From NCBI GenBank assembly GCA_964534545.1, contig CAZHQS010000004.1, positions 1 to 35,640 on the forward strand: a stretch of 35,640 nt of DNA, in the 5' to 3' direction. Positions 1,011 through 22,900 of this stretch are shown in pieces. Position 1 is the stretch's first letter; each line of letters starts with the position of its first letter. Below the pieces are notes generated by a model, which saw nothing but the letters and a program-made list of their open reading frames with translations, ran no database searches and was not told where the DNA came from. The DNA is from Candidatus Hydrothermarchaeota archaeon. Its GTDB lineage: Archaea; Hydrothermarchaeota; Hydrothermarchaeia; Hydrothermarchaeales; JAADFM01. The position numbers and the translations under genes are program-made.

Positions 1011-1020
1011 GGGTGGTTGA

Positions 1021-2002: not shown

Positions 2003-2018
2003 AAATATGACGTATTAA

Positions 2019-2046: not shown

Positions 2047-2799
2047 TTTATCCAGGTCCTCCACCCGGGATACCACCACAGGATAATCTAGCTTCGGCCT
2101 ATCAATGACCATGACTTTCACTCCCATCTCCCTGGCCGCTTCTATCTTCTCAGGAAAACCCCCCTCGGCGCCGCTCTCCTTGGTCACCAGGCAGTCGCAG
2201 TTGAATTTTTTCAGGTGGGCCAGGTTGTCCTCCCTGCTGAAGGGCCCCACGGCCGCTATGATGTTTTCTCTGGGGAGGCCAAGGGATAGGGCCTTTTCGA
2301 CGATATCCGGGGTGTAGAGTACCCTGGCGAAAAGTTCCTTGTTCCTGGCCCCGGCCTCTTTTACGAAGAGTTCCAGGTTGTTTGTCCCAGCGGTGTAGAG
2401 GATGCGCTCCCCCTCTTCGAAGGCCCTTTTGGCTGCCGTCTTGAAGTCAGGGGAGGGGACGATGTCGTCTCCTTCTACCTTAACCGAGGGCCTCTCGAAC
2501 CTGATGTACCTGGCCCCGGTCTTCTCAGCGGCGGCCATGGCGTTCTTTGATACCTCCACGGCGAAGGGATGGGATGCGTCGATGACAGTGGTAATGCCGT
2601 TGCCCTCTATTAGCCCCTCCATGGCCTCCCTGTCCAGGGGTCCTTTTTCTACGACATCCGCCCCGGCCTCCTTCGCGAGGGCAGCGCCGTAATCCGTAGT
2701 AGCAGAGGCCAGGACAAAGGCCCCCGCCCCCTTGAGGTGCCCTATGACCCTAGAGCCGTCTGATGTCCCGGAAATGACCCAAACCCTATCCGATTTCAT
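2035..2799 (-). CDS. cbiJ: Cobalt-precorrin-6A reductase
   Basis: SGTSDG, IDASHPFA, YIRFERP, LVTKESG, VIDRP motifs; likely start ATG 2799. Confidence 0.93.
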   Translation of the reverse strand: MKSDRVWVISGTSDGSRVIGHLKGAGAFVLASATTDYGAALAKEAGADVVEKGPLDREAMEGLIEGNGITTVIDASHPFAVEVSKNAMAAAEKTGARYIRFERPSVKVEGDDIVPSPDFKTAAKRAFEEGERILYTAGTNNLELFVKEAGARNKELFARVLYTPDIVEKALSLGLPRENIIAAVGPFSREDNLAHLKKFNCDCLVTKESGAEGGFPEKIEAAREMGVKVMVIDRPKLDYPVVVSRVEDLDKIIQ

Positions 2800-3535
2800 A
2801 CTTCGACCCATACCCCCTGGGGGTTACCATCCAGCCGTCAAAGACAAAGGTCTCCGAGTTGCCTATTATGACCGTGGAGCGCATGTCGACATCTGACTCT
2901 TTGAGCCTTTCCAGGGTGGTTATCTCCACGGACTCCCCCTTGCGGCTGGCATTTCTCACGATTCCGGCAGGGGTCTCCGGCCCCCTGTGTTCCAGGACGA
3001 TCTCCACTGCGCGGCCGAGCTGCCAGTCCCGCTTTTTACTTTTTGGGTTATAGAGGCAGATGACGAAATCCCCTGACGCTGCCGCCTCCAGCCTCTTCTC
3101 GATGACATCCCAGGGGGTCAGCAGGTCCGAGAGACTTATGACCGCGAAGTCGTGGCCTAAGGGGGAGCCCAGGCGGGCCGAGGCTGCGTTGGCGGAGGTG
3201 ACCCCGGGGATGACCTCCACCTCGACGGGGAGGCCCTTCTCCTTGAGGTATTCCAGGACGATGCTCGCCATGGCATAGATGCCCGGGTCCCCGCTTGAGA
3301 CCACTGCCACTTTCTTTCCTGCCAGGGCCAGCTCGACGGATTCCCCGGCCCTCTCCACCTCTCTCATCATACCGCTTGAGACTATCTCCTTATCTTCAAT
3401 GATGTCCTTCACCAGGTCCAGGTAGGTGGTGTACCCCACCACTGTGTCGCACTCCCTCAGGGCATCCAGGGCCCGTCCCGTCATGTGCTCCCTGCTTCCG
3501 GGACCGATTCCGACGAGATAGATTTTCCCTGCCAT
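2786..3535 (-). CDS. cbiH: Cobalt-precorrin-3 C17-methyltransferase
   Basis: VGIGPG, VVGYTTY, SSGDPGIYAM, HDFAVISLSDLLTPW, LYNPKS, VTPRGY. Confidence 0.95.
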   Translation of the reverse strand: MAGKIYLVGIGPGSREHMTGRALDALRECDTVVGYTTYLDLVKDIIEDKEIVSSGMMREVERAGESVELALAGKKVAVVSSGDPGIYAMASIVLEYLKEKGLPVEVEVIPGVTSANAASARLGSPLGHDFAVISLSDLLTPWDVIEKRLEAAASGDFVICLYNPKSKKRDWQLGRAVEIVLEHRGPETPAGIVRNASRKGESVEITTLERLKESDVDMRSTVIIGNSETFVFDGWMVTPRGYGSKYEIG

Positions 3536-3536
3536 T

Positions 3537-4568
3537 TTATTCGATCCTCCCTATGGCCACCGTCACACCGTCAAACTTCTGCTTTTTCGCAACGAGGCGG
3601 GACCCTTCCCTGGCCAGGACGCCGCAGGGCTCCGAGACCGCCCCCACCCCGATCTTCTCCTTTACGAATTCCGAGGTCTCAAAATCTCCCTCGACTTTTA
3701 TAATGTCCTCCTTTGGTATGCTGTGAAGGGGGACCCCCAGGGCCTCCGCCGCCTGGATGATGCCCGGCTCCTTAGCCTTCATATCAATGGTAGAGATGGC
3801 CCCGAGACTGTCAATGCTCAAGGACGCCGAGGCAAAGGCCCTCCTTATGGCTTCCAGGACCGCTTCTTTTCCCACCCCTTTTCTGGCGCCCACCCCTGCT
3901 GTGAGGCTGGGGGGCCTCAGGAAGATGTGGGGCAGTTTTACACCTTCCATTAGGCGGTCCGTGATTATTATGGCGGCCTCGGTCTCTGTCCCGGGGAGGT
4001 CGTCAATCCGGAATACAGGGATGCCCCCTGCCCCTTTGACCCTATCCCCATAATCTGAAAACATCCCCACCTTATCACCATTGACGATGGCCGAGTTCAC
4101 CGCCGTCAGGTCCCCTTCCCCGACCTTCCATCCCTTCTCCTTGGCGATCCCCTCCACCGACGGCAGGCCCAGGACATCGGTGGCGGTGGTGATGACCGGC
4201 ACGGCCCCCAGACCCTTGGCTATCCCTTCTGCAAGGTCGTTGGCGCCACCGAGGTGGCCCGAGAGGACACTTATGGAGTACTTCCCGGCCTCGTCCACGC
4301 AGACCACCGCCGGGTCGGTCCTTTTGTCTTTCGGGAGGCCGGAGATGGACCGGACCACAATCCCCAGCGCCATGACAAAGACCAGGGCGTCGTATTCCTT
4401 GAAGACCCTTGCCACGAAATCCGAGAGGGGCAGGGACAGCTCCCCCTCGCCAGCGTCCTTGAACCTCGATGCCACGAACACGTCCACATCATGGTCCCCG
4501 AGGCATTCCCGGACCTCCCTGGCCCTTGCTGCGCCACCTTTTGTGAGGGCGATGACTGCTACCTTCAT
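3537..4568 (-). CDS. cbiG: Cobalt-precorrin-5A hydrolase
   Basis: MALGIVVR, KDKRTDPAVVCVDE, SGHLGGAN, VITTATD, GVGAVSEP. Confidence 0.95.
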   Translation of the reverse strand: MKVAVIALTKGGAARAREVRECLGDHDVDVFVASRFKDAGEGELSLPLSDFVARVFKEYDALVFVMALGIVVRSISGLPKDKRTDPAVVCVDEAGKYSISVLSGHLGGANDLAEGIAKGLGAVPVITTATDVLGLPSVEGIAKEKGWKVGEGDLTAVNSAIVNGDKVGMFSDYGDRVKGAGGIPVFRIDDLPGTETEAAIIITDRLMEGVKLPHIFLRPPSLTAGVGARKGVGKEAVLEAIRRAFASASLSIDSLGAISTIDMKAKEPGIIQAAEALGVPLHSIPKEDIIKVEGDFETSEFVKEKIGVGAVSEPCGVLAREGSRLVAKKQKFDGVTVAIGRIE

Positions 4569-5317
4569 CGTTCCCTCCTGAACCCGTGGCTGAACTTTTT
4601 TGAATAGAGCTTGGACCTTTTCCCTTTCTGGGCGAGGAAGTCCCCCACCAGGATGAGGGCGGTCTTCCTGATGCCCTGTTTTTTCACCTCACCTGCCACC
4701 TTATCCAGGGTCGTGATTATAACCTTCTCGTCGGGCCAGGTGGCCTTGTATACCACGGCCACCGGCGTGTCGGCATCGTATCCGGCCTTCAGCTCCTCCA
4801 CTACCTCATCAATCATGGAGGCGCTTAAGAATATGCAGAGGCTCGCCCGGTGCTTTGCCAGGTCTTTCAGGGCCTCCTCTTCTGGCACAGGGGTCCGGCC
4901 TGCAAGGCGCGTGACAATGACCGTCTGGGGTCCGCCGGGGACGGTAAACTCCTTCTTGAGAGCTGCGGCAGCAGCGGTAAAGGAGCTCACCCCGGGGATT
5001 ACTTCGTATTCTACGCCGGCCGCCTCCAGGAGCTCCATCTGCTCCCCTATTGCGCCGTAGATGCTGGGGTCCCCGGTGTGGAGCCGGGCCACCTTTTTCC
5101 CTGCCCCCACGGCTTCGAGGATTACCCTATGGGTCTCTTCCAGGGTCATGGTGGCGGAGTTGTGGACCTCTGCACCCTCTTTTGCGAACTCCAGGACTTC
5201 AGGGTTCACCAGGGAGCCTGCATATATCACTACATCGGCCTCCTCCAGGGCCTTTTTTCCCTTCAGGGTAAGAAGCTCCGGGTCCCCGGGACCTGCGCCG
5301 ATGAAGGTGACCTGCAT
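4565..5317 (-). CDS. cbiF: Cobalt-precorrin-4 C11-methyltransferase
   Basis: IGAGPGDPELLT, YAGSLV, RLHTGDPSIYGAIGEQ, YKATWPDE, SKLY. Confidence 0.95.
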   Translation of the reverse strand: MQVTFIGAGPGDPELLTLKGKKALEEADVVIYAGSLVNPEVLEFAKEGAEVHNSATMTLEETHRVILEAVGAGKKVARLHTGDPSIYGAIGEQMELLEAAGVEYEVIPGVSSFTAAAAALKKEFTVPGGPQTVIVTRLAGRTPVPEEEALKDLAKHRASLCIFLSASMIDEVVEELKAGYDADTPVAVVYKATWPDEKVIITTLDKVAGEVKKQGIRKTALILVGDFLAQKGKRSKLYSKKFSHGFRRER

Positions 5318-5322
5318 CTTGA

Positions 5323-6021
5323 CTACCTCTTAATCACTATCATGGACATGAAGTCCACCTTCTCCTCCCGGACATCCACCAGGGGCATGGTGACGAACCC
5401 TTCCCGGCCGCACCTGGAGAACAAGGTGGCGTTGTCCAGGAGTCCCATCTCTTCGAGGTCGTCTCTGATCCTGGAGAAGCTCCGGGACACCTTCATGAGG
5501 ACCACGGTGTCAAAGGTCCCGGCGATTTCCTGAAGGTCGGCGATGCCGTACTCCGCCGGGATTACCGCCAGTCTGCCGTTTCCCTCCACCAGGGGGGCGT
5601 TGATGCCTCCCATACAGGAGAGGGGGGAGGCCACCCCCGGGACGGTCTCTATCTCGATCTCGGGGTGGTCGTTCTGAATGATCTTCATGACGTAGGCGAA
5701 AGTGGAGTAGAAGGTGGGGTCCCCGATGGTAACGAAGGCCACGTCCTTTCCCTTCTCCAGATGGGGATATATCTCCCCTGCGGCCCTTGCCCAGTGCTCT
5801 TCCAGGACCGCCCGGTCCCTGCTCATGGGAAAGAGGGGCGTTATCACCTCTGGCATTCTATCCAGGACCTTCTCCACGATGCCCAGGGCTATGCTCCTGC
5901 GCCCCTCCTTCGAGATAGGGGAGCATATCACATCCACAGTCTCAAGGACCTCCTTTGCCTTCAGGGTCAAGAGTCCGGGGTCCCCCGGTCCGAGCCCTAT
6001 GCCATAGAATTTACCTGTCAT
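5323..6021 (-). CDS. cbiL: Cobalt-precorrin-2 (factor II) C20-methyltransferase
   Basis: GIGLGPGDPGLLTLKA, FPM, TIGDPTFYSTF, VLMKV; start ATG 6021 overlaps the cbiT stop (ATGA). Confidence 0.93.
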   Translation of the reverse strand: MTGKFYGIGLGPGDPGLLTLKAKEVLETVDVICSPISKEGRRSIALGIVEKVLDRMPEVITPLFPMSRDRAVLEEHWARAAGEIYPHLEKGKDVAFVTIGDPTFYSTFAYVMKIIQNDHPEIEIETVPGVASPLSCMGGINAPLVEGNGRLAVIPAEYGIADLQEIAGTFDTVVLMKVSRSFSRIRDDLEEMGLLDNATLFSRCGREGFVTMPLVDVREEKVDFMSMIVIKR

Positions 6022-6596
6022 TGCCCCAACCTCGCCAACGATATGATGAAAACAGGGTTCAGCGCCCTCATCAAACCTCTCTCGTCCATCCTGCTCACCT
6101 GGACCTGGACCACCTCTGGGTGGAGCCCTTCCGGGACGTGGTCTAAAACCCTTTTCAGGGTATCGATGGAGACGGCATTGACCACTATGATGCCGTCGCC
6201 GGTGAGCTTCCTGGCACATGCGTCAAGGATCTCCTCGATCCTGCCGCCGCTGCCGCCGATGATGATCCTGTCTGCCTGGGGCAGCCCCTCAAGGGCCTCC
6301 GGGGCCTCCCCCTCCACCACATCCACGGTGGTAAGGCCGAACTTGGAAACGTTCTGTCTTATCAAATCAAGGGCCTCTGACCTCCTCTCTATGGAATAAA
6401 CCCTACCCTCCGCTGCAAGGTAGGCGGCCTCCACGGTTATGGAACCTGTGCCTGCCCCCACGTCGTATATAATGGAATCCCTTTTTATCCTGGCCTTGGA
6501 GAGGGTCACGGTCCTCACCTCCTCCTTGGTCATCGGAACGGAGTTCCGCTCGAAGAACCTGTCCGGTATGCCCGGGGTGGCAAAATCCCATTTCAT
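6018..6596 (-). CDS. cbiT: Cobalt-precorrin-6B C15-methyltransferase (decarboxylating)
   Basis: PMTKEEVR, YDVGAGTGSIT, GEAPEAL, IIGGSGG, NPVFII. Confidence 0.95.
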   Translation of the reverse strand: MKWDFATPGIPDRFFERNSVPMTKEEVRTVTLSKARIKRDSIIYDVGAGTGSITVEAAYLAAEGRVYSIERRSEALDLIRQNVSKFGLTTVDVVEGEAPEALEGLPQADRIIIGGSGGRIEEILDACARKLTGDGIIVVNAVSIDTLKRVLDHVPEGLHPEVVQVQVSRMDERGLMRALNPVFIISLARLGQ

Positions 6597-7219
6597 AGGG
6601 CATCACCTATTATCATGATAGAAAGCGTGGCCTCTCCATCCTTCTCCCCAGCCAGTATCTTCAGGGTGGTCTTCACGACCCTCTCATTGGGGTAAGAAAG
6701 GTTTTCCAGTACCCACACCTCTCTGTTCACGACTCCACCCTTCAGGAGACTATGTGCTATCTTCTTTGGCGTATTGACATTGTCGGTCAGGATAGCTGCC
6801 TTTTTCGCTACTGAGACCCGGTCCGCGATATCGCCCACCTCTTTGCCGTGCAGCGACAGGAAGACCGCGTCCTCGAAGGTCTCCTTCATCCTGGCAAAGG
6901 CCAGCTGGATGGAGCCTATTCCCGGGATTACCTCCAGGGCATCAGGGCCGAACTCCCTTTTCAGTACAGGCAGGATGCTGAAGAGCCCCGGGTCCCCGGA
7001 GACCAGGACGGCCACCTTTCGGGCCCTGTTGCGCCTTATGAACTCCAGGGTCTCTGGGATGGATTTTATCCTGAAGGTCTCCTTTCCCATGTCCTCGAAA
7101 AGCTCCAGGGCCCTCTTGCCACCTACCAGCACGTGGGCCTCCTCCACGGCCTTTTGCGCCAGGGGTATGATGTAATCCCGGCTGCCCGGTCCTATGCCTA
7201 CCACAGATATCCTGCCCAT
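6593..7219 (-). CDS. cbiE: Cobalt-precorrin-7 C5-methyltransferase
   Basis: VGIGPG, VGGKR, SGDPGLFS, IPGIGSIQLA, SLHG, ENLSYPNER. Confidence 0.93.
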   Translation of the reverse strand: MGRISVVGIGPGSRDYIIPLAQKAVEEAHVLVGGKRALELFEDMGKETFRIKSIPETLEFIRRNRARKVAVLVSGDPGLFSILPVLKREFGPDALEVIPGIGSIQLAFARMKETFEDAVFLSLHGKEVGDIADRVSVAKKAAILTDNVNTPKKIAHSLLKGGVVNREVWVLENLSYPNERVVKTTLKILAGEKDGEATLSIMIIGDAL

Positions 7220-8319
7220 CTCGACCTCCTGGCCGCATCACACGCCCCGATTATCTCACCCTTCAAATCGAGGATGACCGCTGAAACATGGATACTCTCG
7301 CCCACCAGGTCCCCGCACCTCCTGGAAACCTCCCCCGCAATCCTGTCATAGACCTCCATGAGGCCGGCCCCCCTTACCACCTCCAGGGCCGCCTCGGCGG
7401 TCTTTGCCTCAAGGATATCATTGACTGCCTCCCTCGATGCCCCCATGGCCGCGGCATGGGCCGCGAGGATCTCGAGTTTCGCGTCCGCCACCTTCGAGTG
7501 GGTATTGAAAATCCCCCCCGCCACCTTTACGAGCTTGCCCTGGTGGCCGAAAAGCATGACCTCCTTTACCCCCTTCCGGGCGCACTCCTTCAACATGTAT
7601 CCCACATAGTTCCCCATCTGGACCACGGCATCCTCCGGGATTCCTCTCTCTAGGGCATTCCTCTCCCCGATGTTCCCGGGCACCAGGACCAGGCTCTCAA
7701 ACCCTGTCTCCAGGGCGATATCAATCTGGGGGACGAGGGAGCGCATGAAGGCATCGTCGGACCAAGGCTCCACTATGCCGGTGGTGCCGATGATGGAGAT
7801 GCCGCCCTCGATGCCGAGTTTGTGGTTGAGGGTCCTCCTGGCCAGTTCCTCACCACCTGGCACCGATATGGTCACCTCGGCCGAGGAGCCTTCCGGCAGG
7901 ACCTTACTGACCTCTGATTCGATCATCTTTCTGGGCACCGGGTTTATGGCTGCCTCCCCTACCCCTATCTCAAGGCCGGGTTTTGTCACCCTGCCGATAC
8001 CCTCGCCCCCCTTTATCCTGACTTCCCCCTTCCCGTCTTCTGTCAGCCTCACCCTTGCACAAACCATGGCACCGTCGGTGACGTCCGGGTCGTCCCCGGC
8101 GTCCTTTACCACACAGCATATTGCCCCATCATCCTTTTCCGAGCATTCAGCCACCTCCAGGGTTACCTCATCACCCCCGGGCAGGGTCACCTCCACCTCT
8201 TCCACCCTCTCCCCGAGCAGTCTGAAGACCGCTCCCTTGGCCGCAGCAGCAGCACAGGTCCCTGTGGTAAGGCCCCGCCTGAGGGTCTTCCCGTCCCTTT
8301 CAATCACCATCTGTACCAT
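7198..8319 (-). CDS. cbiD: Cobalt-precorrin-5B C1-methyltransferase
   Basis: GLTTGTCAAAAA, KDAGDDPDVT, AINPVPR, GIEGGISIIGTTGIV, GIFNTHS. Confidence 0.96.
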   Translation of the reverse strand: MVQMVIERDGKTLRRGLTTGTCAAAAAKGAVFRLLGERVEEVEVTLPGGDEVTLEVAECSEKDDGAICCVVKDAGDDPDVTDGAMVCARVRLTEDGKGEVRIKGGEGIGRVTKPGLEIGVGEAAINPVPRKMIESEVSKVLPEGSSAEVTISVPGGEELARRTLNHKLGIEGGISIIGTTGIVEPWSDDAFMRSLVPQIDIALETGFESLVLVPGNIGERNALERGIPEDAVVQMGNYVGYMLKECARKGVKEVMLFGHQGKLVKVAGGIFNTHSKVADAKLEILAAHAAAMGASREAVNDILEAKTAEAALEVVRGAGLMEVYDRIAGEVSRRCGDLVGESIHVSAVILDLKGEIIGACDAARRSRWAGYLW

Positions 8320-8923
8320 TTTCGCAAGCCAACCTCAACAGGGCATTTACAACAGCCGCCGCCACCGTGCTGCCACCCTTCCTCCCCCTGGTGACTATGG
8401 CCGGGACGTCGTATCCCAGTATCTCTTCCTTGGACTCTGCCGCCCCAACGAACCCCACCGGCACCCCCACCACCAAGGCGGGCGTAAGACCGTCTCCTAT
8501 CATGGCGCAGAGTTCGAAGAGGGCGGTGGGGGCGTTGCCAATGGCCACGATACTGCCCCGTATTTTTTCCTTGTTCAATCGGAAGGCCGCCGCAGAGCGG
8601 GTCATGTCCCTTTCTGCCGCCGATTCCTCGACCCCCTCCCCGTTCAGGAAACAAAGGGCCTGTGAACCGAATCTTTCCAGGTATTTCCGGCTGATGCCGG
8701 CCCTGACCATCTCCACGTCAGTTATGACCTTTGCCCCATCCTTAAGGGCCCTGACCCCTGCGCTTATGGGGTCGTTGTGGAAATAGAGGATGTCCTTGAA
8801 CTCGAAGTCCGCCGTGGCATGGATGACCCTCCTCACCACTGACCGTTCGGGTTCTTTCAATCCTCCTAGCTCTGATTCGATTATTCCAAAACTCTCCTTT
8901 TCAATCCTTTTTCCTGCCTTCAT
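8300..8923 (-). CDS. cbiC: Cobalt-precorrin-8 methylmutase
   Basis: RVIHATADF, TRSAA, AIGNAPTAL, PVGFVGAAESK, GRKGGS. Confidence 0.96.
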   Translation of the reverse strand: MKAGKRIEKESFGIIESELGGLKEPERSVVRRVIHATADFEFKDILYFHNDPISAGVRALKDGAKVITDVEMVRAGISRKYLERFGSQALCFLNGEGVEESAAERDMTRSAAAFRLNKEKIRGSIVAIGNAPTALFELCAMIGDGLTPALVVGVPVGFVGAAESKEEILGYDVPAIVTRGRKGGSTVAAAVVNALLRLACENGTDGD

Positions 8924-9327
8924 CCCAGGACCTCTTCTGCCCTGTCCAGGACGATGTCTGCCAGGCGCTCGTCTGCCCCCACGTGGTTGGCGTAGAGTAT
9001 CTGGACATCCTCGGGGACTTCCAGCTTCTGGTACCCGAACTCCGGGACCTCACCTTCCCTCAAGCCCAGAAGGATGGGGATGTCCTCTGTCACGTGGAGG
9101 CCCGGGAGGAGGAACAGGGGAACCACCACGATCCGCTTGAACCCTTCGTTGATGAGCCCCTGTACGGCCTCAATGAGATTCGGCTCATGGTGCTTCATGT
9201 AGGCGACCCTCACAGTGTAGCTGGATTTCCTGTCCGCAATCTCCACAACCCCTTCGTAGACCTCCTTGGTCACGGGGATCCTCGAGCCGTGGCCCACCAC
9301 TACGATTCCTGTTTTGTCTTCATTCAT
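8920..9327 (-). CDS. cbiX: Sirohydrochlorin cobaltochelatase, short archaeal form (CbiX-S)
   Basis: VVGHGSR and PLFLLPGLHVTEDIP; 135 aa; inside the cbi operon. Confidence 0.9.
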   Translation of the reverse strand: MNEDKTGIVVVGHGSRIPVTKEVYEGVVEIADRKSSYTVRVAYMKHHEPNLIEAVQGLINEGFKRIVVVPLFLLPGLHVTEDIPILLGLREGEVPEFGYQKLEVPEDVQILYANHVGADERLADIVLDRAEEVLG

Positions 9328-10468
9328 CCTGAAACTCTCCTTCTCTATTTAATATCTCAACCTGTATATCAAGGCCGCTTTCTTCGTTATATCCTTTAAC
9401 CCTCTCCCGGACCTTCTCCACCATACCGCCGCTTGCTATTATCAGGCAGCTGAAACCCGCCACCGCCTTGAGGATGCAGTTGTTCACCACGTCCGAATAG
9501 AAGTCTGCCTCAAGGCCCATCTCCCTGGCGGCAAGCTTTGCCTTGGTGCCGAGGACACCCATGTACTGGACCCTGGCGGGGGCCAGCTCCCTGGCTCCTG
9601 ACGGATCAGTCACATAGATTTTTCCCACACCGTTCCTTTTGACCATCCTTTTCGGCAGGCCATCCATTAACTCCAGGAGGTTCTTTGGTGGGCTTCCATT
9701 AGCAAGGCCCCGCCCCTTGAGTTCTGAGTAGACCTTCAGGATATGGGGCTGTCTCAGTCCCGCCCTCTTCAGCAGACTGGGCCGGGTGAATATCTCCAGG
9801 GGCGGACCATGTTCCAGAACGGCCCCATCTTTAAGGAGATAAACATGGTCTGCCCACTGGTATGCCAGTTCCACGTTGTGGGTGGCCACCACAATGGTCT
9901 TTCCCTTCTGGTTGAGTTCCTCTAAAAGACCCAGGAGGTCATCCATACCTGACGGGTCCAGGTTCGAGAGGGGCTCGTCAAAGACCAGGATTTCAGGGTT
10001 CATGGCCAGGACCCCGGCAATGGCGGCCCTCTTCTTCTGGCCGTCGCTTAAGAGATGGGGGGGTCTGTCCCGGAAGGTCTCCATGCTCACTACCTCCAGG
10101 GCCTCATCGACCCTCCTTCTTACCTCCTCCTTTGACAGGCCGAGGTTCAAGGGCCCGAAGGCCACGTCCCTGGCGACGGTGGGAGCAAAGAGATGGTCGT
10201 CCGGGTTCTGGAAGACCATCCCTGCCATGGACCGAAGTTCCACCAGGGATTTCCTGTCGTATTTTATCGGCTTCCCCTCCAAGAGCACCTCGCCCCCAGT
10301 AGGTCGCAGTATTCCATTGAAGTGCAAAAGGAGGGTGGTTTTCCCTGCCCCGTTATGCCCCAGGATGGCGGTCTTTTTTCCCTTTTTTATACTGAGGTCA
10401 ACCCCTTTCAGGGCCGGGGTGCCGTCGGGATAGGTATGTTCCAGACCCCTGGTTTCGATGATGTTCAT
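9320..10468 (-). CDS. cbiO: Cobalt ECF transporter ATPase with a ~100-aa C-terminal extension
   Basis: Walker A GHNGAGKTT, FQNPDD, variant signature LSDGQKKR, Walker B LVFDEP, H-loop ATH. Confidence 0.9.
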   Translation of the reverse strand: MNIIETRGLEHTYPDGTPALKGVDLSIKKGKKTAILGHNGAGKTTLLLHFNGILRPTGGEVLLEGKPIKYDRKSLVELRSMAGMVFQNPDDHLFAPTVARDVAFGPLNLGLSKEEVRRRVDEALEVVSMETFRDRPPHLLSDGQKKRAAIAGVLAMNPEILVFDEPLSNLDPSGMDDLLGLLEELNQKGKTIVVATHNVELAYQWADHVYLLKDGAVLEHGPPLEIFTRPSLLKRAGLRQPHILKVYSELKGRGLANGSPPKNLLELMDGLPKRMVKRNGVGKIYVTDPSGARELAPARVQYMGVLGTKAKLAAREMGLEADFYSDVVNNCILKAVAGFSCLIIASGGMVEKVRERVKGYNEESGLDIQVEILNREGEFQDE

Positions 10469-11157
10469 ATATCCTCCCCCAGGGCTGACAGATCACCGTC
10501 ATAGCAGCGGGCGTCCATGGAGGTGTAGAGCCTATCGCTTCGGTCCCAGGACCTTATGAAGAGGTTGGATGCCAGAAGGCCGAAGGAGGATATGGACCGC
10601 CTGAAACCGGAGTGCCCCAGCCTCGCCCTCTGGGCGAAGTGCATCCTTGAGGCCTCCTCCATTACCACGAAGATGAACCGGTAGACCATCATGGAGAGGT
10701 TGACCAGGGGAGACGGGACCCTGAGTCTATGTAAGACTGCGAAGAGTTCCACCATGGGGGTCGTGAAGGCCAGGAAGAACATGGAGGCCGACCCGCCCAG
10801 GACCCGGCTGAGGACCAGAATCCCTTCATCGAACCCGTCACCGTAGGCGGTCAAGGTAAACCCGAGAATATCAAAAGAGAAGATGGGATTTTCCTTTCCA
10901 AAGAAGAACACCATTGCAGCCACCGCCGGCAGGGTGAAGGCAACCGGTCCGTAGAACATCTTTAGATAAACCCTTCCAGGGACCCCTGCCCGGGATACGG
11001 TGAGGAACCCCATCGCCGCAAAAACCGTGAGGGGTACGAGAGGTGAGCCTGCAAACACACCTGAAAGGAGGGCCAAAACAGCGACCCCGACCTTGAGTTC
11101 CGTGGGGGTAGATTTCAGCCGGTTGCAGTGGGCATAATAGTCAAGGATGGAGTGCAT
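10465..11157 (-). CDS. cbiQ: Cobalt ECF transporter T component
   Basis: Hydrophobic protein with FTTP, YRFIF, AQRARLG and MDARCY motifs. Confidence 0.92.
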   Translation of the reverse strand: MHSILDYYAHCNRLKSTPTELKVGVAVLALLSGVFAGSPLVPLTVFAAMGFLTVSRAGVPGRVYLKMFYGPVAFTLPAVAAMVFFFGKENPIFSFDILGFTLTAYGDGFDEGILVLSRVLGGSASMFFLAFTTPMVELFAVLHRLRVPSPLVNLSMMVYRFIFVVMEEASRMHFAQRARLGHSGFRRSISSFGLLASNLFIRSWDRSDRLYTSMDARCYDGDLSALGEDI

Positions 11158-11172
11158 GGGGACTCACCGGGA

Positions 11173-11445
11173 TCAGGCCGACTTCCCTTTATGGTATCCG
11201 AGGTAGTACCCGATGACCAGGGCCCCCAGGGCGGCCTGGAGGGAGAAGAGCAGGGACTCTATCTCGCCGCTTGGCGGCTCCCAGATGGGGTCGAACCAGG
11301 GTTCATAGTCCGGGGCGATCTCTGAGATCTTATCCTCGGCAAGACCGTCTGCCCCGCTCCAGGGTTCGGCCTCTTCCTGGGCCGAGACAAGGGGTGTAAG
11401 GGCAAATAGTAAAATCAGGAAGGCAACGCTCTTGATTCTGGTCAT
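11173..11445 (-). CDS. cbiN: Cobalt transport protein CbiN
   Basis: WSGADG, YEPWFDPIWEPPSGEIESLLFSLQAALGA. Confidence 0.95.
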   Translation of the reverse strand: MTRIKSVAFLILLFALTPLVSAQEEAEPWSGADGLAEDKISEIAPDYEPWFDPIWEPPSGEIESLLFSLQAALGALVIGYYLGYHKGKSA

Positions 11446-12125
11446 CAGTTACCCCCTCCTGCCTGGGGCGTTATGACCTTCAGTCTTACAAGGATGTCAG
11501 AGCGGAGGGTGAGGATATGGTTGAAGAGCACCACCGTCAGGGCGCCTTCCAGGATGGCCAAGGGGACCTGGGTGATGGCAAAGATGGCCGCGAACACCTT
11601 GAAGGAACCAAGGACCCCGCCGCTGGCGGCAGGGAAGGCCAGGGCGAGCTGCACCGACGTGGTGACATAGGTGGCCCAATCGCCCAGGGCCGCGGCGAGG
11701 AAGACACACCATTTCATGCCGAGGCCCGCCTTGCTGGATGCCCGGTAGACCCCGTAGGCCACCGCCGGCCCCACAACACCCATGGAAAATATGTTGGCCC
11801 CCAGGGTGGTGAGGCCCCCGTGGGCCAGGAGGAGGGCCTGGTACAGGAGCACCACGGCCGCAAGGACCGCGGCCACCGCCGGACCGAAGAGCACCGCCCC
11901 CAGGCCGGTCCCGGTGGGATGGGAGCAGGACCCGGTTACCGAGGGTATCTTCAGGGCGGAGAGGACGAAGGCGAAGGCCCCGGCCATGGCCAGCATGGTG
12001 CTGGCCTTCGGGTTCTCGTCTGTTATTCTCTTTATCTGGCTTATGCCATAGAACACGACAGGCAGACTGAGGGCAAACCAGACCTCCCACCAGGGGTGGG
12101 GCAGGAATCCTTCCATGATATGCAT
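11445..12125 (-). CDS. cbiM: Cobalt ECF transporter S component
   Basis: True start MHIMEGFLP (ATG at 12125); [30 protein letters not shown]. Confidence 0.96.
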
Positions 12126-12155
12126 CTTATCACCACTACCCCGTGGGAAGGAGGA

Positions 12156-12163
12156 TTTATATA
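12156..12163. promoter_or_regulatory. TATA box, possibly shared by the divergent cbiM and arsR genes
   Basis: TTTATATA in the 58-bp gap between the two start codons. Confidence 0.5.
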
Positions 12164-12183
12164 CATAGCCTTTGTGATTAAAT

Positions 12184-12717
12184 ATGTTACCCGGAACGGA
12201 AAATGAGGTTTTATTGATGTTCAAGGCCCTCTCCAGCAAGACCCGACGCGAGATGATCAAGATTCTCTCGAAGGAGGAGATGCATGTGACAGGCCTGGCG
12301 GAGGAGCTGGGCATCTCGGTCCCGGTGGCATCCAAGCACCTGAAGGTTCTCCTGGAGGCAGGTCTTGTCAGGAGGAGGATACTTGGAAAGAGCCACATAT
12401 ACAGGGCGAATATGGAGAAGGTGTACAGTGCCCTGGATGGACTGGGGGAAACAGTGGAGGTGGAGGTGCCAAAGGGGGCATCGGTCCTGGACGCCCTGAG
12501 AAAGGTGGCAGGGATAAGGCTTGGCAGGGTGGGGGAAAGGGAGTTCGTTACGGACGTGGACGGCGACAAGGGCTACTATGTCTATGAGGTGGACGGGGAA
12601 CTCCCGGAGGTGGGGATGGAGAGGTTCACCCTGGAGGAGGATACGGTGGTGGAGCTCAAGAAGATTCTGTATGTGAGGAAGAAGAGGATGAGGGTGAAGG
12701 TGAGAGTAAAGGGATAG
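12184..12717 (+). CDS. ArsR-family regulator with a C-terminal DUF4430/transcobalamin-like beta-grasp domain
   Basis: ArsR HTH ([13 protein letters not shown]...[13 protein letters not shown]), then [13 protein letters not shown]...FVTDVDG...[13 protein letters not shown]...LEEDTVV. Confidence 0.75.
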
Positions 12718-13314: not shown

Positions 13315-13734
13315 CTAATCCATCCCTCTCCCGGTAGAGGTCATGACCAGCTTGCCGTGCTTGACACCCCGGGCGCTTATGAGACTGTCGGCCAGATCCT
13401 TTATCTCCCTGGCATCCCCCCGGATGACCAGGACCTCCAGACAGTTGTGCTGGTCCAGGTGGACGTGCATGCTGGAGAGGACATGGGTGTGGTGGGAGTG
13501 CTGGAGTTCCGTGAGTTTGTCCGACACCCCCCGGACGTCATGGTCGTAAAGCAGGGTCAGCGATCCGATGCTCTCACCCTCGGCCTTTTCCCACTCGTCT
13601 GCCACGATGAAGTCCCGGATCAGGTCCCTTATCCCCTCGGACCGGTTGGCATAGCCCTTCTCCTCAAGGACGGCATCGAAGCGCTCCATGAGCCTGGGGG
13701 ATATAGTCACGCTGAATCGTGTAACCTTTTCCAT
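13315..13734 (-). CDS. nikR: Nickel-responsive regulator NikR
   Basis: RHH domain (RFSVTI...[14 protein letters not shown]); metal-binding domain [18 protein letters not shown]. Confidence 0.96.
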
Positions 13735-13979: not shown

Positions 13980-15083
13980 ATGGATAATATACCGGTTTTT
14001 AAAGCCATATCAGGAGAATTGTCCAAGATCTGGAATTACTCCTGGATACCGGTTTCCCTCGATCCAAAGACTTTTTCTGAACTCACCAGGGCAAATGAAC
14101 TGGCCCTGAAGATCATCGCTGAGCAGTACAGGGAGGGGCACTACGAGAACAACTCCCACCCCTTCACCCACAAGATTTCATGCCTTGATGACCCTGAAAT
14201 CTCAATCGTGCCCTTCAGGATAGACTATCTCAAAAAGAGGGACGGCACCTTCGCCATGTACGATCTCAACACCCAGCCCGGGGTTCCAGGGTCCTTTTTC
14301 TGGGAGGAGTTCTGGAGGCAAAGGGGGACGGACCGTTTCATTCAGCATGGGAAGGAGCTGAGATACTTTAGGATATTCCCCATCCTGGGCGATATCTTCA
14401 AGGACCACTCAGGGGACAGGCCCAGGATAGCCATGTTCCAGGAAAGAGATCCCATGATGGGTAAAAGTACCCTCAGGGGGCTGACCACCATCTGCGAGAA
14501 GACCTCCTCCTTTGGCTACTACAACATCGATTTTGTCCAGGAAAGAGATGACCTTGAGGGTTACCATGTCATCGAGCCCTTTTACTTCATCAGGGGGGAC
14601 GTGACCAAGGTATTCTCAAACTATACCACGGCCCTGAAAACCGGCAGGCCCCTTGCCAGCAACCTGAAACTCGAACCCTATACCTCCAAGGACATGAGCT
14701 TTGCCACCAATATGGAATCCTATCTTGATTCCGGAGAAGGTGAATTTTTGAGGGAAAGGATCGCCTTTCCTTCCAAGGGCGACGGTGTTAAAAAGAGGCT
14801 CTATGGCATGAGCGGCACCGGTTACTATGACGGCAACGATTCCATACCATGGTCTAAGGAACTGGTGTGCCAGGAGAGGCTCTTCCCGGAGAGGTGCCAG
14901 GTATCCCGGGGAAAGGACATCATTGAGATGATGTACGACGTGGGGATCACCAGCATCATGGTATTCAGGGGCTGTGAGATGGTGGACTTCCACCCCGTGG
15001 TGGATATCACCATCCGTGCCAAGGAGGAGCACCCCATATCCGGTCCTGATACCAATGTGGTCCCGGCGGCGGTGGAGATATGA
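13980..15083 (+). CDS. Divergent ATP-grasp amide ligase (circularly permuted, glutathionylspermidine/glutathione synthetase-like)
   Basis: FRIDYL...AMYDLNTQPG (RxD then ExN-like, here DxN), KKRLYGMSGTG (K then Gly loop) and VCQERL, in the motif order of permuted ATP-grasp enzymes. Confidence 0.55.
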   Translation: MDNIPVFKAISGELSKIWNYSWIPVSLDPKTFSELTRANELALKIIAEQYREGHYENNSHPFTHKISCLDDPEISIVPFRIDYLKKRDGTFAMYDLNTQPGVPGSFFWEEFWRQRGTDRFIQHGKELRYFRIFPILGDIFKDHSGDRPRIAMFQERDPMMGKSTLRGLTTICEKTSSFGYYNIDFVQERDDLEGYHVIEPFYFIRGDVTKVFSNYTTALKTGRPLASNLKLEPYTSKDMSFATNMESYLDSGEGEFLRERIAFPSKGDGVKKRLYGMSGTGYYDGNDSIPWSKELVCQERLFPERCQVSRGKDIIEMMYDVGITSIMVFRGCEMVDFHPVVDITIRAKEEHPISGPDTNVVPAAVEI

Positions 15084-16540
15084 GGGCGCTGCTTTTCTAC
15101 CCTGACAACATGGTCAAGGGCACCATCCTGCCCCCCTATTCCCTCCTCTACCTCGCCAAGGCCCTGATGAAGGAGGGCCACGAGGCGGTGATCCTGGACG
15201 GCCGATTTGAAGACAAAAAGACCATCGAAGACGAGATATCCAGAACAGACCTTTTTGCTGTAAGCGCTGGCATGAACCTCCAGTTCGCCACCGCCCTGCC
15301 CTTTGCAAAGATGGCCAAGGGTTATGGGGTCCCGGTGCTCTTCGGCGGGGTCTTCTCGACCCTGAACCATGAAGCCCTGCTAAAATACCCCAATATCGAT
15401 GGCATCTGCCTGGGGGAGGGGGAGGTTGCCATTGTCGAAGCCCTGGAGAAGAGTGTCAGAAAGGCCTCCAATGTGGCCTATCTCGACGGGGGAGTTCATA
15501 GGAACCCCCAGGCCCCCTTTATCAATCTGGACCACTACACCCCCCTGCCCTGGGACCTCACGGACATGGAGAGATATGTCACCAGATACAAGGACATGGA
15601 CATCTTCTATTATACCACCAGCCGGGGGTGCCCCCACCGTTGTGATTACTGCTACCAGGGAGGCTTCTGGAACAGGAGATGGAGGGGTATGGGTGTTGAG
15701 AAGGTAAAGGAAGAGATCCATGTCATCACCGAGTCGGTGGATATTGACGGGGTCTATCTCTTCGACGACAACTTCCTGGTGAACAGAAGGAGGGCGGAGG
15801 AAATAACTCAATACTTTCGTGAGAAAGGGCTGAAGTGGTCCTGCATGACCAGGGCGAGCTATCTGGACGAGGCCCTTGTAAAGCATATAAAGGAGTCGGG
15901 CTGTTTCAAGCTGAACATCGGGGCTGAAAGCGGGTCCCAGGCCACCTTAGAGCGCATGAAGAAGGATATAAGGATTGAGGATACCCTCCAGGCCGCCCGG
16001 CTCCTTGGGGAGGCAGGGCTTTCAAGCGAGTTCTATTTCATGATCGGCTACCAGGGAGAGACCATGGAGGACATCATGAAGACCGTGGTGTTGGCCGATC
16101 AGGTGGAGAGGCTCTCGGGGGCCGAGACCTTCATCAGGGTGGCCCTGCCCTTCAAGGGTACCCCCTATTATGAAGCTGCCAGGGAAGCGGGCTTCGAGAG
16201 GGGGGATGACCTCATCTCCCTGTGCACCGAGGACTGGGGCAGGAGGCCCCCTCACCTGCCCTGGTTGAGTGATGAGGAGAACCGGATAGTGAAGAACATA
16301 GCCACCCTGAGCGAGATAAGGTTCATGAAGAAGAAGTTCCTGGCTAACATGCCCCTCTGGGAACGGGTATACATATCCATGATATACCCTTTACTGGAGC
16401 TGAGGTGGAAGAGGAGGCTATGGAAAAGTATTTACGAGCTGGTCCCCTATGAGTTGTATGAAAGCAAGCTGGAATCCAGGCGGTTGAAGGATTCCCTTGA
16501 GATTGCCGGTGGGATGGAAAGGTGTCCGAGTTCGATTTGA
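15080..16540 (+). CDS. Cobalamin-dependent radical SAM enzyme (class B-like)
   Basis: N-terminal B12-binding domain (PPYSLLYLA, LFGGVFST, GEGE), TSRGCPHRCDYC, DDNF, GAESGSQ, FMIG; ATGA overlap with the upstream gene. Confidence 0.92.
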   Translation: MRALLFYPDNMVKGTILPPYSLLYLAKALMKEGHEAVILDGRFEDKKTIEDEISRTDLFAVSAGMNLQFATALPFAKMAKGYGVPVLFGGVFSTLNHEALLKYPNIDGICLGEGEVAIVEALEKSVRKASNVAYLDGGVHRNPQAPFINLDHYTPLPWDLTDMERYVTRYKDMDIFYYTTSRGCPHRCDYCYQGGFWNRRWRGMGVEKVKEEIHVITESVDIDGVYLFDDNFLVNRRRAEEITQYFREKGLKWSCMTRASYLDEALVKHIKESGCFKLNIGAESGSQATLERMKKDIRIEDTLQAARLLGEAGLSSEFYFMIGYQGETMEDIMKTVVLADQVERLSGAETFIRVALPFKGTPYYEAAREAGFERGDDLISLCTEDWGRRPPHLPWLSDEENRIVKNIATLSEIRFMKKKFLANMPLWERVYISMIYPLLELRWKRRLWKSIYELVPYELYESKLESRRLKDSLEIAGGMERCPSSI

Positions 16541-19699: not shown

Positions 19700-19957
19700 A
19701 TGCAAGAATATCTTAAATGGGCCCTTTTAGGTTTCACATGGGGTATAATCGCAGATATTTACTTCATAGTAGGTGATATCTTGAATATTTCTTCGCATAC
19801 TATGAGCATGAGACTTGTCGGATATATTATCGGCTGGCCACTCATCCTTTCTCCATATTTAGGCTTTAGGTTTATTTTTGTTTTTTTAGGATCTCCAATT
19901 ATCGGAGCAATCATTTGTGGAATTTTTGGTTATGTTTTATGGAGGGTGAAACATTGA
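19700..19957 (+). CDS. Small membrane protein
   Basis: GGAGGT RBS; 2-3 hydrophobic segments; overlaps the next gene's start. Confidence 0.65.
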   Translation: MQEYLKWALLGFTWGIIADIYFIVGDILNISSHTMSMRLVGYIIGWPLILSPYLGFRFIFVFLGSPIIGAIICGIFGYVLWRVKH

Positions 19958-22900
19958 AAAGATTATCAACGGTTGTTATAATATCCTTTATCTCTTTTGT
20001 ATTTTTCCAAAATAATACATACGCAATGGAAGAAAATGGTACTATTCATCTAATTTTATCGAATAATGATCTATTTTTGAAAGATGCTCAAGAAGTTAAT
20101 CTAAAAATCGTTAAAATAAGCGGTGAAAATAATACTATTTTCTGGGAGGGATTTACTGATTTACCAATTAATATATCTTTTGATGTCCTACCTGGAACTT
20201 ATAAAATCTATGTAAGTAAAAATAACTTTACAGTAATTGAATATAATAATGATAGTATTGGATATAATGTAAATCCTAAAAGTTATGTAAAAATACCACA
20301 ATCGAAGAGGGATAGAGAGGGGATTAGACCTCAATTTGTGAATACCCCTTTTACTGATGTCACTGCTGATGGGCCATGGAGACTTGAACCTTCTCAAGAT
20401 ATACCCCTCACATATATCATTAAAGATACCGATCAATATTCCTTATATATTCGGAAAATTGAAGTATATGACGATGACCCCCCTCTACAAGATGACAGTG
20501 GTTCCGGTGATACTTTAGTTTATACGCATACATTAGAACAATCATTTGCTCAGGATTTTTGGTATGATATCGATTATTTAGATCGCTCTTTATTCAATGA
20601 TGATAATTTTTTAGAAATTCATGTAAAATTCGATATTGCTTGGGAAGCTGATGTTCATAAGTATTTCACAGTCTATTTATCACCTTATCATATGCCCAGT
20701 TTATCGAATTGGTATTACGGTGATACTCATTATCACAGTAGTTATACTGATAACGCATGTGAATTTGGAGCTCCTATTGAAGCTATTGTAAATACTGGTA
20801 AACGACTAGGTCTTAACTGGGCCACAATCACTGACCATTCTTTTGACTTGGATTCATCAAGGTGGACAGCATTAGGAAATGAGTGCAACACTTATTCAAC
20901 TTTTGATTTTAAATGCTTAAGGGCGGAAGAGATTTCATGTTACCTACCTGGAACTGATACTATTCCAGGTTTATATCAATATAACCACCTCTTAGCATAT
21001 GGTATTAGTAATTTTATCGCTGGAGGGGAATGGGAAGATGGTAGTGGTTCAGATTATACCCCTACCCAAGCAATCTCGCAGGTAAATAGTCAAGGAGGGT
21101 TTAGTTATATTGCTCATCCTTATGCAGATGATCAATTCCGTAATCCATGGCAAGACTATAACTTAGACTTCAATGGTTTAGAAGTTTGGAATGGGATATT
21201 AGACAGTGATAAACAGCTTACAGCACTCAATAATGGCCTGAATAGATGGGTTTCTCTGCTATTAAGTGGGAGAAAGATTTTCATTGAAGGTGGATCAGAT
21301 GCTCATGGAGATTTTAGCCATAATGCTGCAGATGGGATAGATTGCACAAATTTTGCTTCCTATAATATTTTTGAGCCCTATGGCGGATCAGATAACGCCT
21401 TCGGCAAGGTTCGCACTGCTGTTTATTCTCCTTCTGGTTTGACGGAATCCGGCATCCTTGACGCCCTCCGCAATGGACACTCCATAATGACCGATGGTCC
21501 CATGGTTGTTTTTGATGTGAATGGGACCATAATTGGAGATGAGATGAATATATCAGCAGGCCAGAGTGTGGCTCTTAACATCCAGTATAATTCAACGCCG
21601 GAGTTTGGATATATTGACGAAATTACAGTGATTAAAGGCATAATAGGCGGGCAGGAGTCCATTTTTACAGAGTTATATCCTGGAGATTATGAGGGGGGCT
21701 ATACAGTGGTGGATGTCATCCCGACCTCGAACTGCTATTACAGATTAAATGCGACAACAAATACAGGGTACAGGGCATATACCAATCCGATATGGGTAAA
21801 CGTTGATTACTCCGATTCCTACGAACCCGACGACGATTATACCCTGGCGAACTGGATATCGACTGATGGCACGTTGCAGACCCACAACTTCCATGATGCT
21901 GGGGATTATGATTATGTGAAGTTTTATGCCACATCTGGAAATAACTATGAAATAACAACTTCAAATCTTGGGAGTAGTTGTGATACTGTTCTCTATCTCT
22001 ATGATACCGATGGGACGACACTGTTGGCTTCCAATGATGATTATGACTCAAGCCTCGCATCCCGAATTTCCTGGACGTGTCCTGCCTGTCCTGACGGAAC
22101 ATATTATGTCAAAGTCCGGAATTTCAACAGCACACTGTATGGTGCCGACACGCAATACAATATCAACATAACGGAAACCGTACTCCCACCTCCCGCTGTG
22201 GAACGTATAGACCCATCAGATGTTGCAAATATCTCCAACCGGATAGGAATTCAAAATCTTGAAAACGGCTCATGTATCGAAATCCACATTCTCGACAGTC
22301 AAAACGAAGTCTTTGGAGTTTGTTCCATTAACGGTCAAGTGCAAGTAACCAACGGAACGTTGAACAGTGCGGATTTAGTTATTAAGATTAGGAAAAGTGC
22401 ATTTTATTCTGCCCTGTTTTCTTCCAATCCCTTTAAAGAATTGAAAACCCAGTACTATGATTATGACAACATCGATGTAACCCTTGCCAATGGGGTAACG
22501 CATCTATGGGATGCCTCACCATGGGATATAATCGAACTGATAAAACTTGGATACAAGTCTATTTTCAATCGCATCATAGGCTTCTCCCTCACCACTGATG
22601 CCATTTCAAAAAGTGTTGCTCCAGATGAATCTGCAAACTATACCCTTGTCCTGGGAAATAATCAGACGACCACCGATACCTTTAATTTGACATCTACTTC
22701 TATCGGGGCAGGTGATGATGCCTCCCTGGATACATCGTCCCTCATATTGGACCCAAAGACCTTATCATCCAACCTCACCCTCACAGTCTCAAGGTCAGAG
22801 GCGACTGGATACGCCGTAAGTTGTGTAAAAGTTCTGGCGACCTCCCAAAAGAATCGTAATATCTCTGACGCCGTTTTCGTGAAGACTATTTTCGGCAATT

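Follow-up and report, generated by a model that had tools for sequence, protein, structure and literature searches.

The DNA analysed here is a stretch of 35,640 nucleotides from a Candidatus Hydrothermarchaeota archaeon (assembly GCA_964534545.1, contig CAZHQS010000004.1, positions 1 to 35,640 of the forward strand), referred to below as the window, and the subject is a small regulator gene in it that is divergent from an operon for cobalamin (B12) synthesis and cobalt uptake. The regulator joins an ArsR-type winged helix-turn-helix domain to a C-terminal DUF4430 domain, and it is a candidate for a corrinoid-responsive transcription factor. The operon has 14 genes in the order cbiM, cbiN, cbiQ, cbiO, cbiX, cbiC, cbiD, TP_methylase, CbiT-like methyltransferase, two TP_methylases, cbiG, TP_methylase and cbiJ, in which the TP_methylases are named by family only and not as CbiE, L, F or H. 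The cbiM ATG lies at 12125 on the minus strand, so that the regulator gene and the operon share one promoter region, and nikR, for a nickel-responsive repressor, stands on the other side of the regulator gene (Table 1).

Table 1. Features of the window, with those of the regulator locus first and other features below.
Feature	Position	Strand	Basis or remark
Regulator gene (ArsR winged helix-turn-helix and DUF4430/SLBB)	12217..12717	+	166 aa; in-frame upstream ATG at 12184 gives 177 aa
ArsR/SmtB-type winged helix-turn-helix domain	12217..12444	+	Residues 1-76 of the 166-aa form; HTH_5, Foldseek
Transcobalamin-beta-like SLBB (DUF4430) domain with conserved basic C-terminal tail	12445..12714	+	Pfam, AlphaFold2, Foldseek, VIA-align
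Divergent promoter region, cbiM/regulator	12126..12216	.	91 bp with start 12217; 58 bp (12126-12183) with start 12184
TTTATATA, archaeal TATA-box-like element	12156..12163	.	cbiM ATG about 30 nt away, operator-like 18-mer 22 nt away
Degenerate operator-like copy	12186..12203	.	Position weight matrix score -1.3 bits; in register with sites before cbiM elsewhere
14-gene tightly packed operon, cbiM to cbiJ	2035..12125	-	Pfam; reading frames overlap or lie at most 15 nt apart
nikR, nickel-responsive ribbon-helix-helix repressor	13315..13734	-	NikR_C E 3.6e-32 and RHH_1; convergent with the regulator gene
CbiO ATPase with C-terminal extension	9320..10468	-	Weak DUF7839 match in the extension, E 0.045
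Decayed second nikR copy	1810..2048	-	Just downstream of cbiJ
366-aa reading frame and B12-binding radical SAM gene	13980..16540	+	The first, without Pfam family, overlaps the start of the second by 4 nt; second with PF02310 and PF04055
Giant reading frame	19915..28158	+	2747 aa; Ig-like domains, PPC domain, MopE-type metal-binding motif
AbiEii-type nucleotidyltransferase match, after an unknown 250-aa reading frame	258..1731	+	Weak, E 1.7e-4, just below the cut-off
Fic/DOC-domain protein	32491..33507	+	In a low-GC flank

The list of open reading frames (ORFs) of the window gives the regulator as 12184..12717 (+), a product of 177 aa. The ATG at 12217 is the more likely start, because the database protein (P0001) is the 166-aa form, because this start fits the N-termini of most homologues and because GAGG at 12205-12208 precedes it. 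The spacing of 58 bp between the cbiM and arsR starts reported in the original prediction is correct for the upstream ATG, and the one central TATA described there is the octamer TTTATATA, which would act as the promoter element. A TATA-like element stands at the equivalent place in three of the homologous loci described below (L014, L015, L045), and the whole region 12126-12216 can be aligned with cbiM upstream regions from five other loci. The absence of a cobalamin riboswitch, also part of that prediction, was seen at each scale searched. Rfam gave no family at the gathering score in the whole window, a permissive scan of 11700-12600 (up to E 10) returned six chance-level matches of which none was cobalamin, and in the genome as a whole (98.25% complete) RF00174 matched nowhere, although 7 of 14 control genomes gave a positive result.

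The DNA-binding domain of the regulator was readily assigned. HTH_5 (PF01022) matches residues 18-63 with E 5.2e-14 and 52.3 bits, against a cut-off of 22, and the segment 'S.HL' is what we take to be the ArsR/SmtB recognition-helix signature. With an AlphaFold2 (AF2) model of the full-length protein (predicted local distance difference test score, pLDDT, 88.9; predicted template modelling score, pTM, 0.52), Foldseek retrieved structures of ArsR, NolR, SmtB and CzrA, with E-values of 4.5e-6 to 1e-4 and target-normalised template modelling scores of 0.6-0.74. This list holds only ArsR-type structures, because the N-terminal domain fills it, and therefore the C-terminal domain was folded and searched separately.

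The metal sensors SmtB, CzrA, NmtR, KmtR and CadC have the same DNA-binding fold, and one alternative is that the regulator senses cobalt or nickel ions, with the metal held in DUF4430 or between the domains, and controls uptake as NmtR, KmtR and CzrA control export. Its membership of the ArsR/SmtB family argues for this, as does the invariant His23, which presumably occupies the position of the metal-binding Cys of ArsR by our alignment to the ELCVCDL motif. Moreover, the DUF4430 structure 3u7z was named 'putative metal binding protein' by its depositors. The classical ArsR/SmtB sites, which we take to be formed by Cys at alpha3/alpha3N and by Asp, His and Glu at alpha5, are nevertheless missing by that definition. 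The regulator has no Cys at all, its alpha5 segment has no His/Asp/Glu cluster, no Cys is conserved in a 33-sequence family alignment, and the family shows no conserved Cys/His/Asp/Glu cluster at alpha3N or alpha5. The regulator further differs from these sensors in its extra SLBB domain and in its presumed targets, which are genes of uptake and synthesis and not of efflux. Together with the gene contexts given below, this makes an ion sensor unlikely in our judgement.

The nature of the C-terminal domain is central to the interpretation. In the 177-aa form, DUF4430 (PF14478) matches residues 98-158 with E 7.4e-5 and 23.6 bits against a curated cut-off of 23.8. Scanned alone, the C-terminal 90 residues score 25.7 bits, above this cut-off, and DUF4430 is likewise recognised in 53 of 56 C-terminal domains of homologues (best E 8.7e-11), so that the resemblance to DUF4430 noted in the original prediction is borne out. 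The AF2 model of the domain, built on the 56-sequence alignment, has a pLDDT of 92.1. In a Foldseek search with this model, every one of ranks 1-18 was either the beta domain of a B12 carrier (transcobalamin, haptocorrin or intrinsic factor) or 3u7z, a DUF4430 protein from bacteria. VIA-align superposed the model on these same structures with Z 9.6-10.6 and a root-mean-square deviation of 1.6-1.9 A over 76-77 of 90 residues, whereas the next-best fold class, the ubiquitin-like ThiS/SAMP1, reached Z 6.2. Because of this difference in Z, the tail as modelled is a transcobalamin-type beta-grasp and not a generic ubiquitin-like fold, which agrees with the relationship to transcobalamin originally proposed.

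Details of the model point in the same direction. A helix (14-18) is followed by a clade-specific beta-hairpin (E24-29, E32-38), G43 does not vary in the family alignment, and conservation of G40 and G51 is 90% or more. A beta-hairpin after the helix and two conserved glycines are given as marks of the transcobalamin-like SLBB clade in the relevant passages of PMC1796856, and we infer which glycine of the domain equals which in the figure of that paper. A mostly aromatic hairpin position (F/Y in 'EFV/EYV') may match the base-stacking position named in the same passages; it is non-aromatic in the Methanosarcina members. The fold, the hairpin insert and the conserved glycines are shared with the beta domains of transcobalamin, intrinsic factor and haptocorrin (5no0, 5np4, 4kki, 2pmv, 2bb6) and with 3u7z, at sequence identities of 9-22%. 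Unlike the transcobalamin-type carriers, the regulator lacks an alpha-domain partner to sandwich B12, is a cytoplasmic protein with a fused DNA-binding domain, and has an additional basic tail, VxKKxxxIxV, which is conserved in the family (K72 and K80 are nearly invariant) and has no transcobalamin counterpart. The lone domain would be no obstacle to corrinoid binding, because PDB entry 5np4, to judge from its title, shows cyanocobalamin held by a transcobalamin beta domain on its own.

It could also be that the C-terminal domain is no sensor, and serves oligomerisation, contact with DNA through the basic tail or binding of protein partners, the regulator then being constitutive or otherwise controlled. 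Beta-grasp domains often mediate protein contacts, the next-best folds ThiS and SAMP1 are of this kind, the conserved tail is foreign to transcobalamin, and with the pTM of the full-length model the relative placement of the two domains is not fixed. On the other side, the clade hairpin and the glycines, which form the ligand site in transcobalamin, are kept, and one architecture is maintained across Hydrothermarchaeota, Methanosarcinales, Methanocellales, Thermoplasmatales and Bathyarchaeia, in gene contexts of the type expected for a small-molecule feedback loop. We thus consider a role without ligand sensing very improbable.

In order to place the regulator among its relatives, homologues and their neighbourhoods were collected. 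The protein database holds 49 homologous clusters, 39 with a precomputed DUF4430 match, and a scan of one genome per species gave 130 relatives, of which 80 loci (numbered with L below) were kept. They come from Hydrothermarchaeota, Methanosarcina and other Methanosarcinales, Methanoperedens, anaerobic methanotrophic archaea of group 1 (ANME-1), Methanocellales, Thermoplasmatales and Bathyarchaeia. Among related genomes, counting the one studied here, the family is present in 27 of 31, and in 15 of the 17 high-quality ones, several of them with two copies. Genes in the loci were called crudely, with a call for the regulator in 75 of 80, and the neighbours within four genes on each side were clustered, after which 70 representatives and 133 singletons were scanned against Pfam.

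A cobalt or corrinoid neighbour was found in this range in 35 of the 75 loci. The largest set (14 loci) has a DUF2162-MotA/ExbB-DUF2149 gene group, mostly divergent from the regulator and in 6 cases accompanied by CobN. CbiM/N/Q/O genes are present in 8 loci; another 8 have extracellular DUF4430, prenyltransferase-like or DUF6580-DUF4430 proteins together with parts of energy-coupling factor (ECF) transporters; and 5 have BtuF-like, FecCD, CbiZ, TP_methylase or NicO genes. The expectation that homologues are linked to B12 genes is therefore supported by these neighbours, and also by a shared operator-like sequence before cbiM and other uptake genes, which is described below. The remaining loci comprise 14 in which the regulator gene follows an ADP-ribosylglycohydrolase gene, 5 in which it lies beside nrdD, and 21 with nothing telling or with a short contig.

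Two of these contexts have features of their own. The ADP-ribosylglycohydrolase loci (L021, L025, L030, L031, L034, L036, L038, L039, L044, L048, L052, L053, L055, L070) belong mostly to metagenome-assembled genomes of ANME-1/Methanophagales type; the gene precedes the regulator gene in the same orientation, directly so in 12 of 14, and the operator-like sequence lies near the end of the ADP-ribosylglycohydrolase gene, with no obvious tie to B12. In the nrdD loci (L006, L009, L011, L018, L022), all from Pyrohabitans-type genomes, the regulator gene adjoins the gene of the anaerobic, B12-independent ribonucleotide reductase and is divergent from that of an unknown 163-aa protein. A radical SAM gene comes after nrdD in 4 of the 5, and in 3 of the 5 the genes that follow encode a plain ArsR protein and a P-type ATPase.

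Gene contexts bear on the identity of the signal. Genes for B12-independent enzymes of the nrdD type are often controlled by B12 in bacteria, so the nrdD context, which might suggest another ligand, is compatible with B12 and need not oppose it. A soluble ligand other than a corrinoid, be it a different tetrapyrrole (sirohydrochlorin or F430, for example) or a metabolite of unrelated type, would suit the recurrence of the ADP-ribosylglycohydrolase and nrdD contexts among loci with no B12 neighbour, the concentration of the family in methanogens and ANME, which also make F430, and the replacement of the aromatic hairpin residue in the Methanosarcina members. It is also allowed for by the authors and reviewers of PMC1796856, who in the passages concerned state that SLBB domains fused to helix-turn-helix domains may bind other ligands. 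Against this, the targets seen repeatedly are cobalt- and corrinoid-specific, and the partner operon in the window is the B12-specific cbiC-cbiJ set; we therefore rate a non-corrinoid ligand as improbable.

Metal-related genes are the commonest targets (CbiMNQO, the CobN-linked putative transporter and NicO), and nikR is a neighbour of the regulator gene here and in several loci, as would be expected of the cobalt or nickel sensor considered above. The sensor domain, on the other hand, is nearest to corrinoid-binding and not to ion-binding proteins, and corrinoid-specific targets occur too, namely BtuF-like, CbiZ and CobT-like genes and transcobalamin-like surface proteins.

The upstream regions of the family genes have in common an 18-bp palindrome, RTTAnCCAWWTGGnTAAY. 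Usually it is flanked by a TATA-like box and the start codon, or else it overlaps the latter. A position weight matrix (PWM) was built from the family's own upstream regions, and with it 775 kb of loci yielded 75 sites scoring 12 bits or more, compared to 7 in one Markov-1 randomisation. Of these sites, 28 are away from family starts and thus outside the training set of the PWM. Eleven of the 28 are in the long spacer beside the DUF2162 operon of Methanosarcina-type loci, and others precede cbiM (L014, L024, L033) or the gene of a DUF4430 surface protein (L037), or lie beside BtuF-like or NikR genes (L012, L019). When cbiM homologues at least 40% identical to that of the window were examined, 5 of 7 had a site 54 to 80 nt ahead of the ATG, and the one in L023 had it at -7. 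None of the 4 cbiM homologues below 40% identity, which are probably of nickel type, was preceded by a site, a distribution that does not favour a cobalt or nickel sensor. This co-occurrence suggests that the ArsR-DUF4430 protein binds the palindrome. In a complete 4.1-Mb Methanosarcina genome, the strict IUPAC pattern had one match, between the end of cobN and a surface-protein gene, some 8 kb away from the gene of the regulator; the pattern in reverse, used as control, matched once as well. Because one site against one control match is too few, no genome-wide Methanosarcina regulon was drawn.

Another factor, for example NikR, might bind the palindrome and would then own the regulon. The half-sites GTTAC/GTAAC resemble the NikR signal predicted for delta-proteobacteria, given in PMC545781 as GTGTTAC-N13/14-GTAACAC, and nikR is found near the regulator gene in the window and in 9 of the 80 loci (tblastn with the NikR of the window). 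The motif, moreover, has been assigned to the regulator by co-occurrence only. Yet GTTAC and GTAAC are 8 nt apart here and not 13-14 nt, a compact 18-bp palindrome suits a winged-helix dimer, sites at the regulator's own start occur in 47 loci while most loci have no nikR within 6 kb, and the only strict-pattern match in the Methanosarcina genome adjoins cobN, subject to the equal count of the control. NikR or a similar factor is thus a highly improbable owner of the site.

Within the cbiM-regulator spacer, the best candidate site is the 18-mer at 12186-12203. Read in the cbiM direction, its arm on the cbiM side, GGGTAAC, is perfect, and the other arm keeps T, T and C of TTAnCC. It is in register with sites of 10.8-20.5 bits before cbiM in L014, L015, L024, L033 and L045, a positional argument made post hoc. 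The window shares with L014, L015 and L045 the layout of operator, about 20 nt, TATA-like box, about 30 nt and cbiM ATG. Exact inverted repeats in 12060-12280 are limited to the TATA palindrome and one at the cbiM start. In the direction of the regulator gene, the site follows the TATA box by 22 nt and falls close to where transcription probably starts, a position that fits autorepression. In the direction of cbiM, it is about 22 nt upstream of the TATA box, which in archaea fits activation, here by the ligand-free protein, as well as repression, and because of this upstream location the sign of cbi control may be either.

The genome studied also has a paralogue of the regulator, on contig C12 at 6339-6845 (-) (locus L084), which is an ArsR-DUF4430 protein 51% identical to it. 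A near-consensus palindrome is found directly before its ATG, and elsewhere in the genome a CobT-like (DBI_PRT) gene has a site of 15.1 bits before it. Two genes for T2SSE-type ATPases lie next to the paralogue, which is transcribed divergently from a DUF531 gene. Contig C127 (L085) encodes a further ECF metal transporter, with genes of CbiM, a PDGLE-domain protein, an ATP-binding cassette ATPase and CbiQ. Its CbiM is 34% identical to that of the window and its promoter region runs off the contig; the transporter may be a nickel-type system.

From these results we favour, with slightly better than even confidence, the reading that the regulator is a one-component factor whose C-terminal domain binds a corrinoid and thereby alters its affinity for DNA, giving feedback on B12 supply. 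ArsR proteins are dimers. The winged-helix domain would bind DNA probably as a dimer, and would probably recognise the 18-bp palindrome. The C-terminal domain would take up B12 or a late precursor, this would change DNA binding, and the outcome would be end-product feedback on B12 supply in archaea, a group not known to have a B12 riboswitch. In the window, the factor would act on the promoter region common to its own gene and the cbiMNQO-cbiX-cbiC...J operon. As to the original prediction, that a corrinoid-responsive factor controls B12 synthesis and cobalt uptake here, the fold and the gene contexts support it; the corrinoid itself is what these two lines suggest, the operator in the window is degenerate, and the effect on cbi may be activation or repression.

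Several observations weigh against this reading. At the level of the domain, the Foldseek E-values are weak, from 0.037 to 0.8 with none at or below 0.001, and a sequence profile of the domain had no significant match among PDB chains (best E 0.23, to a TonB-dependent receptor plug). At the level of the operator, the 47 own-start sites are partly circular because the PWM was trained there, co-occurrence alone joins motif and factor, and the cbiM gene of L078, although 59% identical to that of the window, has no site. In the window itself, the best candidate of the spacer reaches only -1.3 bits, and the PWM scan of the whole window gave no significant site, the best being 12.5 bits at 25063, inside the giant ORF, where the random maximum averages 11.4. 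In the genome as a whole, the excess of sites is modest (7 versus 1 at 14 bits or more, 15 versus 9 at 12 bits or more), and of the intergenic sites the two with the highest scores stand before a UbiD-like gene and a CN-hydrolase/PRC-barrel pair and not before B12 genes. At the level of neighbourhoods, 40 of the 75 loci, including those with ADP-ribosylglycohydrolase and nrdD, have no cobalt or B12 neighbour. Finally, a regulon rich in metal transporters leaves some room for a cobalt or nickel signal, because a sensor of these ions would also control such genes.

If a corrinoid is indeed the ligand, the regulator probably fills in archaea, by analogy, the role of bacterial B12 riboswitches. 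The genes that the cobalamin riboswitch (RF00174) controls are similar, covering cobalt uptake, corrinoid uptake and salvage, and cbi/cob synthesis according to the sections of a review on its regulon (PMC7689651), with presumed end-product feedback; RF00174 is an RNA, whereas here a protein would act on DNA. A bolder version, which we put at somewhat less than an even chance, is that the family as a whole is the archaeal protein counterpart of this riboswitch. A corrinoid in the transcobalamin-like domain of a winged-helix dimer would switch binding to the palindrome; where the site is downstream of the TATA box, at its own gene and at the uptake operons, the dimer would be a repressor, and where the site is about 20 nt upstream, at the cbiM-led operon of cobalt uptake and B12 synthesis, the ligand-free dimer would be an activator. 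In this genome the two paralogues may share the operator, one serving de novo synthesis and the other other targets.

The idea of such a sensor is not new. ArsR-SLBB fusions in Methanosarcina were described as probable one-component factors for B12, its precursors or other ligands (Burroughs, Balaji, Iyer, Aravind, Biol Direct 2007;2:4; PMC1796856), and a reviewer asked the authors for a softer B12 claim. Those factors have the same architecture and the same inferred function, a response to B12 or precursors, and the Methanosarcina members (L043, L046, L059, L062, L076, L079) are 42-47% identical to the regulator over the full length. The regulator is thus a new member of the kind predicted in silico in 2007. 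In the passages of PMC1796856 on these fusions, the case is made from architecture alone, and no operator, regulon or link to a de novo cbi operon is described. Members of Hydrothermarchaeota type and the presence of two paralogues postdate that paper. Specific to the window and its genome are the direct linkage, in divergent orientation, to a complete cbi operon for de novo synthesis, the decayed operator, the second paralogue and the site before the CobT-like gene.

Protein factors take the place of vitamin riboswitches in Archaea, and RbkR, for riboflavin, is an example. It too combines an archaeal winged helix-turn-helix domain with a domain that binds a pathway product or cofactor, and has a palindromic operator derived from comparative genomics (PMC5397151). 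In the account given there, RbkR is an experimentally tested activator that is switched off by its ligand. Its sensor is a riboflavin kinase, while that of the regulator is DUF4430, in a family known from sequence and models. The regulator carries neither PF02310 nor a MerR-type helix-turn-helix among the 17 Pfam families matched at E <=0.1, and the only PF02310 domain nearby is in the radical SAM enzyme at 15080-16540. CarH and LitR are protein factors with B12 as ligand, built from a MerR DNA-binding domain and the B12-binding domain PF02310. They differ from the regulator in that their sensor domain is of the Rossmann type and that they are light sensors.

Searches of the literature on DUF4430, archaeal cobalamin regulators and cobalt or corrinoid regulation in Methanosarcina returned no experimental test, operator or regulon of the family, and no experimentally shown B12-responsive regulator of archaea. 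Two candidates were set aside. The M. mazei ArsR regulator MM2441 (PMC3510493) is the second gene of the MM2440-41 operon, a context that does not match, and no link to the family was established; BtuH was rejected as a DUF4430 protein, since BtuH proteins belong to DUF4465. Archaea make and use much of the world's B12. If the favoured reading is correct, a protein sensor with the fold of the animal B12 carriers would explain how archaea, methanogens and methane oxidisers among them, keep cobalt uptake, the scavenging of corrinoids and de novo synthesis in balance. Because members are present in cultivated and genetically tractable Methanosarcina, and because an 18-bp operator is now defined, B12 sensing in archaea is directly testable, and the sensor might also be used as part of a B12 biosensor.

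Additional features were observed in and around the cbi operon. The C-terminal extension of CbiO is present in several loci, and in L033 its match to DUF7839 is strong (E 3.3e-18). The decayed nikR copy consists of pieces that match 13315-13440 (90% nucleotide identity) and 13662-13779 (77%; the 5' end and promoter), with about 221 internal bases gone and an early stop. The intact gene and this remnant have the same orientation and flank the cbi operon and the regulator gene on both sides.

In the rest of the window, the 366-aa ORF and the radical SAM gene probably form one operon. The giant ORF has an embedded DsbA/thioredoxin domain at residues 1859-2014, and its GC content is 0.456, below the 0.59 of the cbi segment. 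Short repeats were found at 30136-30199 and 32282-32345, and at 17818-17858 and 28899-28939.

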